From a virus (taxonomy: Duplodnaviria > Caudoviricetes), in the IMG/VR virus record IMGVR_UViG_3300032241_001154, positions 192 to 64,191 of that record: 64,000 nt of DNA, one strand, 5' to 3'. A program made the translations under genes and the position numbers. Shown here piece by piece: positions 10,367 through 64,000 of the stretch. The notes under the pieces were generated by a model, which was not told the origin of the DNA, did not search any database, and saw only the letters and a program-made list of their open reading frames with translations. Position 1 is the first letter of the stretch. Each line of letters begins with the position of its first letter.

Positions 10367-10396
10367 TTGACATGTGTCACAGCCATGTGGCACAAT
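10367..10396 (+). promoter_or_regulatory. promoter, TGTCAC-spacer class
   Basis: TTGACA-tgtgtcacagccatgtgg-CACAAT; contains near-palindrome TGTGTCACA-GCCA-TGTGGCACA. Confidence 0.65.
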
Positions 10397-10435: not shown

Positions 10436-11134
10436 ATGCGTTACCAGAGCCGATACAACCAAGCATCACCAAGCGAAGCCAACAACTGGGGCGTGCGTGG
10501 CACCTGCCGTTGCGGTGCAGCCGTGGTGACCGACTGCATCGGACGCAGTGCGTGCGATGAGTTCTGGGACGAGGTGCATGATGCCAAGCGTGCGTACCTC
10601 AACCCTGCGCCAGTGCAGAAGGTGTACGCCACCGAGAAGCAACTCGCCTACGCCAAGATGCTCATCACCACCGTCAAGGTTGAAGCGAAGCCTCGCAAGC
10701 GCACCTACGGTCTGACCGAAGAGCAGATTGCCATTCCGTACTACGAGGCTCCCATGACGTTCTCTCGTGTCTACTCCGTGCCCTTCGCCTCTTTCAAGAA
10801 GGAATGCAACGAGGTGCTCGAAGCGATTGCCAAGGGCGAGCGTATCGAGATGTACAAGGTCAGCGACATCATCAGCAACCTGAAGTGGTCGAAGCAGCAG
10901 GGCCGTGGCACCGAGAGCCTCGTGGACGTTGCTCCTAAGGCCGAGGCTCCTGCTGCCAACGTCGAGGCTCCCACGACGAAGCAGATTGGATTCATGAACG
11001 TCCTGCTGAAGAAGAAGGACGTGCCAACCGACCTGCTCGCTCAGGTCGAAGGTGCCAAGGCATCGAAGGCCAAGGCATCGAAGTTGATTGACGCACTGAC
11101 CAAGTGCGCCGACAAGGTGGCAGTAAGCGCTTAG
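10436..11134 (+). CDS. hypothetical early protein
   Basis: AGGAG RBS; N-terminal Cys cluster; two T-x-K-Q helical motifs (ATEKQLAY, PTTKQIGF). Confidence 0.7.
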   Translation: MRYQSRYNQASPSEANNWGVRGTCRCGAAVVTDCIGRSACDEFWDEVHDAKRAYLNPAPVQKVYATEKQLAYAKMLITTVKVEAKPRKRTYGLTEEQIAIPYYEAPMTFSRVYSVPFASFKKECNEVLEAIAKGERIEMYKVSDIISNLKWSKQQGRGTESLVDVAPKAEAPAANVEAPTTKQIGFMNVLLKKKDVPTDLLAQVEGAKASKAKASKLIDALTKCADKVAVSA

Positions 11135-59705: not shown

Positions 59706-60203
59706 TTATTGGGGCCTGTTTGCGCCCCAAAGTGAGGTGAAATGGCCTCGTTCTGCTTCGCCAATGTGCTCCAAGAGCAGGTATCCATCGAGATGGTCTG
59801 TCTCGTGCTGAAAGATGCGAGCGAGCAATCCTTCCCCGTCAATCCTGTAGGCGTTCCCGTCAAGGTCGAGGGCCGTCAAGGTCGCTTTGTACGAGCGGCT
59901 GATTTGCCACCCGAACTTGGGCACCGACAAGCATCCTTCGGGCGTGACCTCGATGTCAAGGGGGTCAGTGAAAACCTCTGGGTTGATGGCGACGTGAGCG
60001 CCCGTGCCGTCGCCGCTGTCCCAAACGAACATGCGGTGCGAGTAGCCGATTTGGTTGGCGGCAAGCCCAACACCGAGGTGAAAGTACATGGCCTCAACCA
60101 TTTCGGCGGCAATCATCTTGATGTTGTCTGTGATTTCACTGACTGGGGTCGTGGGGGCTTCCAAAATGGGGTCGCCGTAGAAGCGCATGGCTGGGATGTT
60201 CAC
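59706..60203 (-). CDS. def: peptide deformylase
   Basis: GVGLAANQIG, EGCLS and QHETDHLDG motifs; start reassigned to GTG 60203. Confidence 0.93.
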   Translation of the reverse strand: MNIPAMRFYGDPILEAPTTPVSEITDNIKMIAAEMVEAMYFHLGVGLAANQIGYSHRMFVWDSGDGTGAHVAINPEVFTDPLDIEVTPEGCLSVPKFGWQISRSYKATLTALDLDGNAYRIDGEGLLARIFQHETDHLDGYLLLEHIGEAERGHFTSLWGANRPQ

Positions 60204-60466
60204 CGTGCGCCCATCTCTCTCTTTGCCTCTTCGAGCAGTTCGGCGGTGAAGTCCTCTGGCGACAGTTCGGTCTTGGCGTGGGCCATCAACTTGCCGCAGG
60301 CGATGCTGAACGCCCATGTGTAAAGGCTGAGTTCCTCGTCGAGGTGCGACAACTCCTTGCGGTAGCCGAGAACCATCTGGTCGTGCTTGGCAATCAGCCC
60401 TGCCATCCCAGTGCGCATGGTAGCCAACTTCTCTTCGAGGTCGGCAATCTGCTTTGACTTACGCAC
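60200..60466 (-). CDS. coiled-coil hypothetical protein
   Basis: 88 aa, overlapping neighbours. Confidence 0.6.
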   Translation of the reverse strand: MRKSKQIADLEEKLATMRTGMAGLIAKHDQMVLGYRKELSHLDEELSLYTWAFSIACGKLMAHAKTELSPEDFTAELLEEAKREMGAR

Positions 60467-60611
60467 GGTACTTCTCTGGCACTGGGCCTGTGTACGAAGC
60501 GCCGTTCAAGTCTGAGGTGAACGGGAAGCGTGCCGAGCACTGCTGGCACACGACGTAGGTCTTAGCGCCTGCGTTCATCAAAATCCACTTGTGGAAGGCG
60601 CAACTAGCCAT
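60459..60611 (-). CDS. 50-aa Zn-finger-like peptide
   Basis: Manual translation MASCAFHKW...VCQQC...; fills the gap. Confidence 0.55.
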   Translation of the reverse strand: MASCAFHKWILMNAGAKTYVVCQQCSARFPFTSDLNGASYTGPVPEKYRA

Positions 60612-60777
60612 GCTGAACCGTCATGACGTACTTGCTGGCGTTGGCGGTAAACGCCTGCGCCTCTTCCTTCGTAGCGAAGTCGGGCGATGTCATGACGGTG
60701 TAGTAGTAGCCATCACCACCTTGGTAGGTCTTGAAGAAGAACCCGTTGCCATTCCAAATCTCGACAACTTTACTCAT
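60604..60777 (-). CDS. 57-aa hypothetical protein
   Basis: MSKVVEIWNG..., TGATG overlap with upstream stop. Confidence 0.5.
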   Translation of the reverse strand: MSKVVEIWNGNGFFFKTYQGGDGYYYTVMTSPDFATKEEAQAFTANASKYVMTVQHG

Positions 60778-60980
60778 CAAATAAACGCCTTCATGTCTTG
60801 CGCTTCTGCTTCCCATTGCTCTGGTGAACCGAGACGAACGACGTGCAAGCACACGTCCGTGCCGTTCTCCATGAGTTCTGATTCGGTGTCGGTCAACTCC
60901 ACGCCTGCGTGGGTTTCGCACACCTGCTGGGTGCAGAACTTGTTGTCAATGCCGTACTGAAGCCACTCATCAAAGGTCAT
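60777..60980 (-). CDS. 67-aa Cys/His hypothetical protein
   Basis: MTFDEWLQYGI...C...CETH.G...E.E..E.G.D.C.HVVRL. Confidence 0.6.
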   Translation of the reverse strand: MTFDEWLQYGIDNKFCTQQVCETHAGVELTDTESELMENGTDVCLHVVRLGSPEQWEAEAQDMKAFI

Positions 60981-60990
60981 GGCGTTCACC

Positions 60991-61524
60991 TTAGCAGCCG
61001 TCGGAGTTCCATTCTGGGTGGATTCCGTTATTGCGGTTCCAATAGAAGGCGGCGACACGGAACTGGTCTGCGATGCTCGCATCTTGGGCATGCTGGGCGG
61101 TGATGCCAAGAGCGTTAGCGCCGAACTGCCACGTTGGGGGCATGAACTGAAAGATGCCTGCCGCACCCTCGGCGTTCACCTCACGGTAGTTGTGGAAGTC
61201 CGTGGGGGTCGAGCGAGATTCACGCCACATGACGCAGGTGAAGGCCGCTCGGCTCGCTGGTGGGAGCAAGTCCATGTAGCCGCCAGATGGGGCTGTGTGG
61301 CTCGCTACGGGCTTTGGCTTGGCTTTGTGGTGAACCACAGGCTTGGCGACGTGCACATGCGCTAATGGGCGACTGTTGCCGTACCAGAAGATGGTAATCA
61401 TCTTGGGCGTGGTCGTCCGAGCGGCGAGGTGATGGGCCACCTTGGGCGCAGCGTGGAACATTCCTACGACAAGGGAGACTACGACTGTCAGTGCGAGGAA
61501 GCCACCTCGCACCGTGCCTAGCAC
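60991..61524 (-). CDS. exported Rpf/lysozyme-like transglycosylase (start uncertain)
   Basis: N-terminal hydrophobic signal, basic linker, C..WRES...N...GAAGIFQFM..TW...A....Q...A......G..W...C. Confidence 0.8.
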   Translation of the reverse strand: MLGTVRGGFLALTVVVSLVVGMFHAAPKVAHHLAARTTTPKMITIFWYGNSRPLAHVHVAKPVVHHKAKPKPVASHTAPSGGYMDLLPPASRAAFTCVMWRESRSTPTDFHNYREVNAEGAAGIFQFMPPTWQFGANALGITAQHAQDASIADQFRVAAFYWNRNNGIHPEWNSDGC

Positions 61525-61718
61525 GAGCCTGCCTTGGTAGAGGGATAGAACGGTACCGCTATTGGGTTGCTGGACACAACGCACTCCTTTGGTTGCCCAT
61601 TGGGGGATGCACCAGTTTACCCGAATGTGACGGATAAGGCAAGTACTAAGCGATTTCCTTGCAAATAAAGGGTTTTGCCCCACCGTCGAGGTGATAGAAA
61701 AAAAACATGCAAAAAGAC

Positions 61719-61748
61719 TTGACAGATGTCACACGGGGGTGCCATACT
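61719..61748 (+). promoter_or_regulatory. promoter, TGTCAC-spacer class
   Basis: A-tract, then TTGACA-gatgtcacacgggggtgc-CATACT; closely similar to the promoter at 10367. Confidence 0.65.
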
Positions 61749-61753
61749 GGTTA

Positions 61754-62050
61754 GGTAAGAAAGCAGCAGTGCCGAGGTGCGCTTGTAAAGTCCCCACGAG
61801 AAAGTGGTCGAGCAAGCCGAAGGCCAGCCTGTGAGCCGTACCACCTGTTTGCGACACGGGCGCACTCAGTAAGGCCGTAGGAAGTTCGGAGCGAACTACG
61901 GCGAAGGTGGGTACGGAAGTTGGGAGCGGAAGTGGTACCCCTAGGAAACGGGAAATCCACAAAGTAGCCCAGCGCAGATGCAGTACCCCAGTAAGGAAAA
62001 CCAAGGCTACCGAGTTAGAAGTCCCCTCAGCAAAGGCTGGGGGGATTTTC
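61754..62050 (+). ncRNA. candidate ~290-nt highly structured non-coding RNA
   Basis: Lies between a promoter and a terminator, has no credible ORF, and shows many nested helices with purine-rich loops. Confidence 0.6.
62019..62050 (+). terminator. intrinsic (probably bidirectional) terminator
   Basis: AAGTCCCCTCAGC-AAAG-GCTGGGGGGATTTT. Confidence 0.7.
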
Positions 62051-64000
62051 TATTGCTGGGCGACGCTATACGGAATGTTGTTTTTGACGAGCGAATCAAC
62101 CGTCGTCTTGTTTGGGGGTGTGTCAAACTCGACCCGTGCGATGTCTCCCAAGGTGATTCCGCCGTGAATCTGGGCCTCGACGTAGGGCGCACGTCCCGTG
62201 TTGTTGATAGTTGCGTCTGCCGATAGCCCGTGCTTCAGCATGTCAACGATGCTGTGTTCGCCTGCTGGCTTGACCGCTTCTGCCTCAGGGTCACGAGCCG
62301 ACATGGGCTTGGTAGTCCATGGGTTGCCGCCCCTCTGACCGAAGGTGCCTCGGCTGTCGCCCATGGTGACCGTAGAGCGGTCTTTCACGCCGTCCTTCAG
62401 CACGACCTTGGCACCGCCGTAATAGGTGGGGTCGTCCTTTGAGCCTGCGTGGTCAATGTAGCCGTAGATGGGACGCTCGGATGGTGACGCACCTTCCAAT
62501 CCGAAGAGTTTGTTTTCGACTTGGGTTCGATGATTGTTCGGGTCGGAGATTTCACCACCGTGCATGGTGGCAGACGAGCCAGTTTGGTGGGCATTCTTGA
62601 TGGAGCCGCTTGACAAGACTTGCTTCAGAGCAGATGGTTGCATGCGGACGGCTATTTCACCTGACGCTACAAAGTTTTTGATGGCCCTTGCCGATGCTTG
62701 CTGATACTCGGCGTGGCTTCCAGTCCATTGGTTGCCGTTGAATGGGTGTCCTGCCGCCTCGCCTTTGTAGACCTCGTTCAGCACTTGATAGTGGATTTGG
62801 CTTGCCTTGTCGTCGTCGCCTGCCTCGTGCGCCTCTTGCTCTTGGGCGAGCAGTTTGACCGCCTTGTCGCTGAGGTGTTCCCCTTTGGGCTTCTTAGCCT
62901 TCTGTAGGGGGCGTAGGGCGAACCGTGCCCAGATGTCGCCAGCGGCCTTACCAATCGGCTTGGCGGCGACCCCATTGTCCTTTGACCATTGCAACGCTCG
63001 GCTAATCACCTCGGTGGCAGGAGCGTCCACACGGATAATTGGCAACATCTGCGAGGGGTGCTGGAAGTGGATAGCCACGTCCGCAGCCCAGTTGTGGTGA
63101 CCGTCAATGACGTAGTTGTCCTTGGAGACAAGAAGGAACTTGCTCTGGGGGATTTGCCCGTCAGCCTCTTTGTAGAGTTGGGCAGCACGCCCAAGCCCGA
63201 TTTCCTTCTGCGAAGGCTTCAGGGTCGTGGGGTCTACAAACTCTTTGGTTGAGGTGATACCGCTCTTGGCAAGGTCGGAGACAAACTGGTCACGCATTTT
63301 GCTGGGCACTTGGGGCATTTCGCTACGGGAGTAGCCAAGTCCGTCCTGCCCCATTAGGCGTGTTCCGTCTACTCGGAGTTCGGTGATGTCTGCCGTGGCG
63401 ACTTTTGGATTGTCAATCTTGTTCGCCTTGTCCAACAGAACGCCAAGTTCGCTGGACGAGATGACGGGCTTTTCACCTGCTGCCAGTGAGTTGATGACGC
63501 TCTTTGACCATTTCTTGGGGTTCTCCGAGGACGAGTATCCGCCCGTCCACTGATTTCCCTCAAAGGCGTGCCCTTGCTCTGCGCCAGAACCTTGTCCGCC
63601 CTTCACCACTTGGCTACTTCCGCTCGCCTGAAGCAGGGCGTTGGCGTAGTCCTTGGCTTCAGCGTCGGTGCAAGTAGCAATGCCTTGGAAACGACCAATA
63701 AGTTCGGGGGTTGCTGGAACAACGTCCCAATACTTCACAATGGCAAAAGAACTCTTTAGAAAGTTGTCTTTTAGTTCCTGAAGGGTTTGTTCGCCGTTTC
63801 CGTCCACGAACTTGTCGTCGCCCACCTGTAATGCGTAGTGCTGAACAAAGACGGGTGGATAGTCCTTGCCTTCCTCTGGCTTGATTGGGTCGCCAATAGC
63901 GACAGGCTTGCCGTTGGGGTAGATGTTCTGTAGCGCCTTCATCACCACGCCGCAGCCACCAAACAAAGGGTGGTTGTTTGGGTAGGCGAGAAACCCTTGC
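62050..64000 (-). CDS. polyvalent multi-domain protein (partial): papain/transglutaminase-like, ParB/Srx-like and DUF3626-like domains
   Basis: Frame is open to the right edge. GGCG..HY...FVD triad-like; LKPSQ.E...VSKDNYVIDGHH.WAA; RPIYGY...YG...VLK...TVT.GDS...YVEAQIHG; two GHxFxGNQW tags. Confidence 0.7.
   Translation of the reverse strand, partial: QGFLAYPNNHPLFGGCGVVMKALQNIYPNGKPVAIGDPIKPEEGKDYPPVFVQHYALQVGDDKFVDGNGEQTLQELKDNFLKSSFAIVKYWDVVPATPELIGRFQGIATCTDAEAKDYANALLQASGSSQVVKGGQGSGAEQGHAFEGNQWTGGYSSSENPKKWSKSVINSLAAGEKPVISSSELGVLLDKANKIDNPKVATADITELRVDGTRLMGQDGLGYSRSEMPQVPSKMRDQFVSDLAKSGITSTKEFVDPTTLKPSQKEIGLGRAAQLYKEADGQIPQSKFLLVSKDNYVIDGHHNWAADVAIHFQHPSQMLPIIRVDAPATEVISRALQWSKDNGVAAKPIGKAAGDIWARFALRPLQKAKKPKGEHLSDKAVKLLAQEQEAHEAGDDDKASQIHYQVLNEVYKGEAAGHPFNGNQWTGSHAEYQQASARAIKNFVASGEIAVRMQPSALKQVLSSGSIKNAHQTGSSATMHGGEISDPNNHRTQVENKLFGLEGASPSERPIYGYIDHAGSKDDPTYYGGAKVVLKDGVKDRSTVTMGDSRGTFGQRGGNPWTTKPMSARDPEAEAVKPAGEHSIVDMLKHGLSADATINNTGRAPYVEAQIHGGITLGDIARVEFDTPPNKTTVDSLVKNNIPYSVAQQ

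Follow-up and report, generated by a model that had tools for sequence, protein, structure and literature searches.

A stand-alone structured non-coding RNA gene of modular build in a small clade of uncultured freshwater phages

A plus-strand transcription unit between minus-strand genes

The 64,000-nt stretch of phage DNA analysed here (hereafter the window) covers positions 192 to 64,191 of the IMG/VR virus record IMGVR_UViG_3300032241_001154, which is 64,191 nt long and has an estimated completeness of 51%. Almost all long open reading frames (ORFs) of the window lie on its minus strand, and the intergenic gap between two of them (61684–62049) houses a unit that runs backwards, i.e., on the plus strand, and that occurs once in the virus record. 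This unit, at 61719–62054 (+), is an autonomous, selected, structured non-coding RNA gene of a small clade of uncultured freshwater phages. A first-pass annotation of this DNA had proposed a stand-alone structured RNA with its own promoter and terminator, and promoter scanning, folding and conservation among homologues confirm a stand-alone non-coding transcription unit, consisting of a promoter, a purine-rich structured RNA of ca. 298 nt (predicted span ca. 61755–62052) and an intrinsic terminator. The locus reads as follows (MFE, minimum free energy fold; R1, covariance model of the rod):

60991–61683, minus strand: flanking ORF, without family assignment
61719–61748, plus strand: sigma-70-type promoter, TTGACA-18-CATACT, 10 of 12 consensus positions, the sole promoter-like site in 60500–63500
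61719–61724, 61740–61741 and 61743–61748, plus strand: promoter parts, i.e., –35 box TTGACA, TG, and –10 box CATACT; a TGTCACA word lies in the 18-nt spacer and an A-rich tract upstream
61755–61793, plus strand: predicted 5′ end (ca. 61755, placed from the –10 box), leader and UAAAG word (61786–61790), from alignments
61794–61807, plus strand: hairpin hp1, CCAC / loop GAGAAA / GUGG (61794–61797/61804–61807), from the MFE and comparison
61836–61916, plus strand: helix P2, CCGTACCACC/GGTGGGTACGG (61836–61845/61906–61916), around a 60-nt insert, from the MFE and homologues
61874–61880/61896–61902, plus strand: hairpin B within the P2 insert, with an inner stem at 61884–61888/61892–61896, from the MFE
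61917–61973, plus strand: AA linker and conserved rod hairpin (rod 61919–61973, 55 nt), from model R1 and pair counts
61919–61924/61968–61973, plus strand: rod outer stem of 6 bp, paired 100% in seven sequences, two of six pairs compensatory
between outer and middle stems, plus strand: rod 7x7 internal loop AGCGGAA / AAAGUAG, near-invariant in sequence
61932–61935/61957–61960, plus strand: rod middle stem of 3–4 bp, followed by a small internal loop
61939–61941/61950–61952, plus strand: rod CCC/GGG, closed by the conserved 8-nt apical loop UAGGAAAC (61942–61949)
61974–62020, plus strand: 3′ tail with the second CAGUAAGG (61989–61996), common to the L004 subtype and absent in other subtypes
62021–62054, plus strand: intrinsic terminator, GC-rich hairpin 62022–62031/62036–62045 followed by a U-run, seen in the fold
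62050–63966, minus strand: convergent flanking ORF, C-terminal part with DUF3626 and ParB-like assignments

The promoter, already read as TTGACA-N18-CATACT in the first-pass annotation, was the one site returned by a consensus scan of 60500–63500, where shuffled sequence averages 0.9 sites. A promoter of the form TTGNNN-17/18-TANNNT is found at the equivalent place in all nine complete variants, with differing sequences, and the more distant phage L026 retains the –35 and –10 boxes with a different spacer. The same holds at the other end of the unit, where every complete homologue carries a differing GC-rich hairpin followed by a T-run. Although a terminator scan of 60500–63500 did not list it, the terminator that the first-pass annotation placed at 62019–62050 is thus upheld by fold and homologues. 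Its stem is lengthened by 62016–62021/62047–62052 (giving a 10–16 bp hairpin within 62016–62052), it ends 1–4 nt ahead of the stop codon of the convergent gene, and in one variant G62021A replaces a G-U pair of the stem by A-U. Retention of both signals in all complete members despite sequence change is the best available evidence that promoter and terminator are functional. The RNA is probably expressed early, as judged from the host-type promoter.

A second promoter-like site, at 10367–10396 (+), has the same TTGACA followed by the TGTCACA spacer word and differs from the RNA promoter by two mismatches. The first-pass annotation saw this promoter class shared with a Gam cassette; the Gam label is unsupported, the ORF behind the site (10436–11134) having received no Gam or other assignment from Pfam or PHROGs. 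The TGTCACA word and the –35 box together form a TGACA..TGTCA palindrome, and this site common to both promoters may be an operator for a phage or host regulator.

That no credible ORF lies within the unit, as stated in the first-pass annotation, was borne out across the family: sense ORFs are short and not shared, and those of the minimal members count at most 18 codons. The window RNA is 61% purine (sense strands across the family 57–61%), and A>T and G>C skews are restricted to the RNA unit. Its MFE of –105.6 kcal/mol compares with –95.5 ± 4.7 for shuffled sequences (z = –2.16; 2 of 100 shuffles equal or better), and the strong support for a folded RNA is comparative, not thermodynamic.

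The major capsid protein of the window phage (53557–54543 (–), PHROG 1005) has its nearest cultured relatives, at ca. 50% identity, in Arthrobacter and Microbacterium phages, and in locus L004 the gene neighbouring the RNA unit encodes an Rpf-type transglycosylase domain; an actinobacterial host is therefore likely for the phages that carry the RNA. The sequence comes from freshwater and pond metagenomes, with 20 runs from 16 studies containing the stretch or part of it. Further along the minus strand, a peptide deformylase gene is present at 59706–60317 (–) (Pfam PF01327, E 2e-40).

A conserved rod in a modular RNA family

Homologues of the RNA were found on ten further IMG/VR contigs (one cut off by the contig end) and in six records of the JGI metagenomes, with lengths of ca. 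155 to 600 nt. A capsid protein search of IMG/VR placed relatives at 178 places, of which 80 loci with 61–99% identity were kept; close relatives were gathered via neighbour-protein and pattern searches (L004/L006 and L026 from IMG/VR, L073–L078 from the JGI metagenomes), and distant members with nhmmer, two further pattern scans and model R1. One IMG/VR contig (L005) stops just short of the RNA. The distant members are:

L098: ca. 600 nt
L100: ca. 370 nt
L119 = L121 = L173: ca. 265 nt
L118 and L124: ca. 155–165 nt, the minimal members
L178 (record G002): ca. 420 nt
L177: cut off by the contig end

Searched over 87 sources (1,115,387 bases), R1 gave a score of 85.1 bits (E 3e-16) for the window; eight other loci, with six distinct sequences, reached 96–102 bits, and beyond these nothing rose above noise (one match at E 3.3). 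Exact 17-mer and 15-mer scans of IMG/VR yielded 25 and 40 stretches, all of them chance matches by blastn and nhmmer except L026 and one contig common to both scans; the pattern scan of the JGI metagenomes gave six stretches, all near-identical relatives, while that of genomes gave 11 stretches from unrelated phyla, none homologous by nhmmer. Among 50,697 phage records, neither the window RNA nor the L098 RNA had a blastn match in cultured phages, R1 reached at best 12.8 bits (E 0.56) on three Arthrobacter or Microbacterium phage genomes, and E. coli genomes gave no match.

In near relatives, the promoter boxes, 61755–61916 and the terminator are almost invariant, while 61917 to ca. 61990 is replaced or expanded. 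Against L026, identity per 50-nt bin is 32–74% in the flanking genes (a second conserved island excepted), 78% in the promoter region, and 96% across 61750–61899. Window-type variants differ seven times in the 5′ domain, each time by a loop or junction change or by a C>U or A>G change to G-U. Read from 5′ to 3′, a unit of the family consists of (U/G)(U/A)AAAG, hp1, (A)GCAAG, the P2 5′ strand, a variable insert, the P2 3′ strand, AA, the rod, and a linker with the terminator. Members are built of one or two such units, the UAAAG word precedes the hairpin in every unit, and the window RNA is a single unit with a 60-nt insert in P2. Even close relatives have exchanged, duplicated or lost inserts. 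The middle part is hypervariable, and the common core of P2, two A's and the 55-nt rod is present in eight of nine complete variants. In the minimal members the P2 5′ strand sits in a hairpin loop, and an H-type pseudoknot is probable there, with support from two sequences.

Within the rod, the loops are invariant or nearly so while the stems change among members. Seven distinct rods have 97.6% of cells paired, as compared to 26–54% when slid, and in the outer stem two of six pairs are compensatory (G-C to U-A; G-C to A-U), a covariation score that none of 500 shuffles reached. In the five distinct 3′ units, whose structure was derived from the very alignment used for counting, 95.1% of cells are paired (vs. 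33–51% when slid), and 7 of 45 pairs are compensatory, as compared to 2.9 ± 1.2 in shuffles (1 of 500 shuffles reaches seven). The covariation among homologues that the first-pass annotation had named as a check is thus seen in these few, related sequences, with compensatory pairs in both rod and 3′ unit. Furthermore, U-G pairs occur in six of seven rods; since these would be A-C on the opposite strand, it is the plus strand that folds.

Independently of the alignments, folding the window sequence by itself and without constraints gives an MFE that includes P2 and all three rod stems. Of the helices that the first-pass annotation had found by eye, three (P2, CCAC/GTGG of hp1, and GTGG/CCAC) agree with the fold of the family. 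P2 itself has position-equivalent helices in all rod-bearing homologues, and those of L026, L098/L100/L119, L178, L118 and L124 differ in sequence and stand directly before the AA and rod. The CCAC/GTGG stem of hp1 is likewise conserved, being invariant while its loop reads GAGUAA, AAGUAA, AAGUAC or GAGGAA across L026, L098, L100, L119 and L177. GCCGTA/TACGGC with its inner hairpin, i.e., hairpin B, is compatible with the variants, the one C>U change retaining a G-U pair, and its interior (61880–61893) repeats the beginning of the rod to 93%. GTGG/CCAC corresponds to the rod middle stem, for which homologues show CGG/CCG one column out of register, and this shift causes the pair count of alignment A4 to score the window as unpaired there. 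The repeated word was also found again, with CAGTAAGG at 61867–61874 and 61989–61996; the 3′ tail that holds its second copy possibly pairs with 61826–61833, as seen in the MFE alone.

Two other helices found no support. CCAGC(61824)/GTTGG(61919) clashes with the covarying rod outer stem, GTAGCC(61964)/GGCTAC(62005) uses bases of that same stem, and neither has a counterpart in other subtypes. The pairings GCTTG/CAAGC and GTGCGC/GCGCAC, the latter proposed as a pseudoknot, are invariant or altered to G-U alone, and are confined to the subtype of the window. The 7x7 loop of the rod may be akin to the AGUA/GAA loops of loop-E-type or sarcin-ricin-type motifs.

The same comparisons bear on whether the unit is an RNA gene at all, as its conservation might instead stem from a minus-strand protein frame or from an element that acts as DNA, e.g., an origin, a packaging site or a hot spot of recombination. 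Minus-strand frames are indeed open, the longest reaching 98 codons in the window and 111 codons in L026. In one antisense frame, three of the six substitutions that separate window-type variants are synonymous (an unremarkable share), and many contigs break in or beside the unit, as expected at a recombination hot spot. However, the open antisense frames follow from the 57–61% purine content of the sense strand. Moreover, some near-identical variants differ by 1-nt indels (after 61680 and at 61904), a stop breaks the antisense frame in L004, and about 8 of 19 antisense rod codons differ between the window and L098 with pairing kept (read by eye). Together with the U-G pairs of the rods and the plus-strand conservation of promoter and terminator, this makes a protein frame or DNA site highly improbable.

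Known RNA classes and genomic setting

Searches with Rfam 15 (4227 models, gathering threshold as criterion) returned no match in the whole window, in agreement with the first-pass annotation, which had recognised no known family. In sensitive mode over 61500–62300, nothing inside the RNA appeared at E≤10, and the two sub-threshold matches both began at the terminator (17 bits vs. 181.5, and 10.6 vs. 48); seven loci with other family members (38,900 bases) gave no match at E≤1. Judged by titles and abstract openings, no paper among those listed by a literature search dealt with the window RNA. The RNA family, its modular plan and its conserved rod are thus absent from Rfam 15, while the unit displays the features of a generic stand-alone small RNA gene: an own promoter, an intrinsic terminator, no conserved ORF, and conservation in relatives.

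Individual classes were also considered. ARAGORN found no tRNA or tmRNA gene in the window. The first-pass annotation had felt reminded of the RNase P S-domain, but the type A model (RF00010) had no match in the virus record at E≤10, in a search that was positive in 11 of 14 control genomes, and the score of 25 from a local alignment with E. coli rnpB lies below the mean of 26.2 for shuffled sequences, 186 of 300 of which scored as high. Alignments to 16S rRNA, prompted by an apparent likeness of the rod to a 16S helix, were matched by 61 to 200 of 200 and by 193 to 260 of 300 shuffles. Several short purine-rich words resemble, by eye, segments of RNase P and rRNA, and the RNA might imitate a cellular RNA or be its degenerate kin (RNase P S-domain, 16S helix or tRNA-like), docking to or decoying the partner of that RNA. 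The uniformly negative searches largely refute this idea at the sequence level, and it is highly improbable.

The likeness to Ms1 did not hold beyond size: no Rfam model of the 6S RNA/Ms1 kind matched, and the fold branches into five or more separate helices, whereas RNAs of that kind form one long irregular hairpin whose large central bubble mimics an open promoter. For a type III antitoxin RNA (ToxI-like), the hallmark of which is an array of near-identical repeats of ca. 34–40 nt beside a toxin gene, only a weak 13-nt x 2.4 repeat was found by TRF (score 41), and no same-strand gene lies downstream. Group II intron domain 5, SRP domain IV, lambda boxB, tetraloop receptor and kink-turn were considered by eye, found no support in the Rfam searches, and were dropped.

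CsrB/RsmZ sponges are RNAs with many hairpins that show GGA in the loop. The window family resembles them in its GGA within purine-rich hairpin loops, A-rich linkers, own promoter and terminator, and varying number of modules, but differs in that its loops are carried by a long, irregular rod whose internal loops are conserved. Because GGAAA-type motifs occur at just 0–3 non-overlapping sites per RNA in nine variants (none in L119, one in each minimal member), a many-site sponge of this kind is unlikely by motif count, and the protein-sequestering role suggested in the first-pass annotation finds no support in that sense. No CsrA/RsmA-like protein turned up in 44 window ORF scans (40 distinct ORFs) against Pfam or PHROGs, and actinobacteria are not known to possess CsrA.

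An aptamer that binds a ligand (e.g., soaking up a signalling nucleotide) or a ribozyme, with the pseudoknot-plus-rod core as the active fold, would fit the stand-alone transcript, which is not a gene leader, and the minimal members of ca. 155–165 nt, which join the probable H-type pseudoknot with the rod and show many invariant unpaired bases. Nevertheless, no riboswitch or ribozyme model of Rfam matched at E≤10 or E≤1, nothing indicates a ligand, and the pseudoknot is backed by two sequences alone, so that we regard this explanation as rather improbable.

The RNA gene is not part of the fixed gene complement of these phages. A complete relative with terminal repeats (G003; 121,340 nt) is without an R1 match, the L098 RNA reaching at best E 0.78 there, and G004 and G005 had no match to R1 or the L098 RNA. 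G002 carries the RNA gene at ca. 101 kb, some 56 kb from its capsid gene and among short promoter-driven units. Because a complete relative lacks the RNA and another carries it elsewhere in the genome, the RNA gene is accessory and moron-like. Phage morons are autonomous promoter-to-terminator units between genes of a late operon, and the classical ones encode proteins; the window unit resembles them in being self-contained, in its opposite orientation within the head-gene block, and in being present, absent or relocated among close relatives, but it encodes a structured RNA instead of a protein.

Other small units accompany the RNA in relatives. In G002 (L178:1330–1470 (–)), a promoter-like site straight after the RNA terminator is followed by a unit of ca. 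90–100 nt that ends in its own hairpin, and upstream of the RNA lies a promoter with a 37-codon acidic ORF; G002 thus carries several short promoter-to-terminator cassettes in a row, of which one or more may be another small RNA. Just upstream of the RNA gene of L118 (640–1060 (–)) lies an ORF of ca. 125 codons for a small membrane protein with a copy of the same promoter type, an ORF that L124 does not have.

Contigs often stop in or beside the RNA gene (L005, L073, the ends of L177/G001, and the start of IMGVR_UViG_3300025773_000006). Assembly breaks fall at window positions 61918 and 62054, and the point at which loose contig ends of two DNA runs diverge is exactly 61918, the boundary between P2 and rod. 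The four DNA runs compared yielded sequence variants and contig breaks. The middle part of the RNA varies among strains from the same habitats, and the breaks are consistent with co-occurring strains that differ in modules downstream of P2.

The convergent large gene ends in ...LNEVYK in relatives (L004:1–393, L026:8927–11359), and in the window (62050–63966 (–)) it continues for ca. 250 codons beyond this point, into the DUF3626 domain. The extra domain resembles N-terminal genes of mycobacteriophage L5-like phages, and the gain or loss of a domain in this gene is located exactly at the RNA terminator.

On the other side, 61483–61608 (minus-strand sense) forms a second island of ca. 98% DNA identity to L026 in a gene that is otherwise 32–74% identical. 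It spans an AAGGAG (Shine-Dalgarno-like), the first ca. 40 codons of ORF 60991–61683 and an 8-bp hairpin, its few changes are all synonymous, and it may be an mRNA-level element. A GTG ca. 100 nt inside this ORF, before a membrane-anchor-like segment, appears to be the better-placed start candidate.

Possible function of the RNA and its significance

A covarying rod whose internal loops do not vary in sequence usually marks a platform for protein or tertiary contacts. Because the stems of the rod change while its loops hardly do, we favour, tentatively, an RNA that acts in trans by binding a protein through the rod, as a decoy or ribonucleoprotein subunit, and that is transcribed early. In this scheme, host RNA polymerase would transcribe the RNA from the strong sigma-70-type promoter, probably early; the stable RNA would then act in trans, with the P2-rod core as a platform for a host or phage protein; and the variable inserts may tune or add to its function as decoy or ribonucleoprotein subunit.

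A number of points weigh against this interpretation. The subtype of L004, L074 and L076 is without the canonical rod and carries two hairpins of partial likeness instead, so that, on the sequences at hand, the rod is not strictly universal in the family. The covariation is based on five to seven distinct sequences from related phages, the derivation of the 3′ unit structure inflates the contrast with slid controls, and the fold energy represents just a modest gain over chance. Scans with Pfam and PHROGs recognised no RNA-binding protein among the neighbouring genes. Finally, there is no RNA run among the 22 sequencing runs listed for the sequence, and because of this the promoter, the 5′ end and the timing remain predictions.

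A related but less probable reading sees a modular, fast-evolving phage RNA in which the pseudoknot/P2-rod core would capture a host factor (e.g., a defence or translation component) and the exchangeable inserts would be shuffled between co-occurring strains in an arms race.

We likewise give only a minor chance to a regulatory RNA that works by base-pairing, either in trans on host or phage mRNAs via its conserved loops, or in cis as an antisense RNA in the late head-gene block. In the latter case the transcript would be fully complementary to the read-through late transcript, leading to cleavage or transcriptional interference. In favour of this, every complete member whose context was read has its RNA gene convergent with the opposite-strand upstream gene, only on the plus strand is the terminator strong, so that minus-strand read-through is plausible, and antisense RNAs are common in phages. 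However, a cis-antisense RNA could do without a conserved fold, whereas here stems covary and loops are kept, and G002 carries the RNA gene in a different genomic context. Complementarity to the conserved island 61483–61608, the sole target searched, was not above chance: 122 of 300 shuffles were as good in a whole-length RNAduplex, local pairing scored 46 vs. 44.3 ± 7.2 in shuffles, and as high a score was reached by 387 of 1000 shuffled sequences and by 196 of 485 windows of the genome.

Among described phage RNAs, the early promoter Pleft of Cluster A mycobacteriophages (L5, D29, StarStuff) is reported to drive small non-coding RNAs that are abundant and stable (PMC5712189). The window RNA is like them in being actinophage-encoded, in having a strong host-type promoter and no conserved ORF, and in lying in a region that diverges fast by small insertions and deletions (PMC5712189). 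The Cluster A RNAs are described there as located at the right genome end and as seen by RNA-seq and Northern blots (PMC5712189), whereas the window RNA is known from its sequence and, unlike them, runs against the direction of the head-gene block in which it lies. The blastn comparison of two family members with the 50,697 phage records gave no match and thus no sequence relation to them.

GOLLD and ROOL are structured, covarying phage and prophage RNAs that form independent units, are accessory and much larger, and have their own Rfam models. The window family shares with them the structured, covarying independent unit and the accessory distribution, but it differs in its size of ca. 155–600 nt and in its exchangeable modules around one rod, and the GOLLD and ROOL models of Rfam did not match it.

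The kind of object is thus already known, as an orphan structured phage RNA unit, while the family, its modular plan and its rod are new to Rfam 15. Structured RNAs of phages are accumulating, and very few have a mechanism. The small core of this family may offer a way in: the minimal natural form of ca. 155–165 nt, with its sharply defined P2, AA and rod, suits pull-down, probing and structure work, and natural domain swaps are at hand in close relatives that bear the same core with different inserts and are directly comparable. Since a complete relative lacks the RNA, a knock-out should be viable and informative. The RNA locus would also explain why the assemblies of these phages break at this site.

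Even if it binds no host factor, the family would make a clean new entry for RNA family databases. If the core does capture a host factor while inserts are shuffled around it, the RNA would be a counterpart of the protein anti-defence 'morons', and if the rod binds such a factor, it would represent an RNA-based device for host takeover or counter-defence in actinophages, whose hosts lack classical RNA chaperones.

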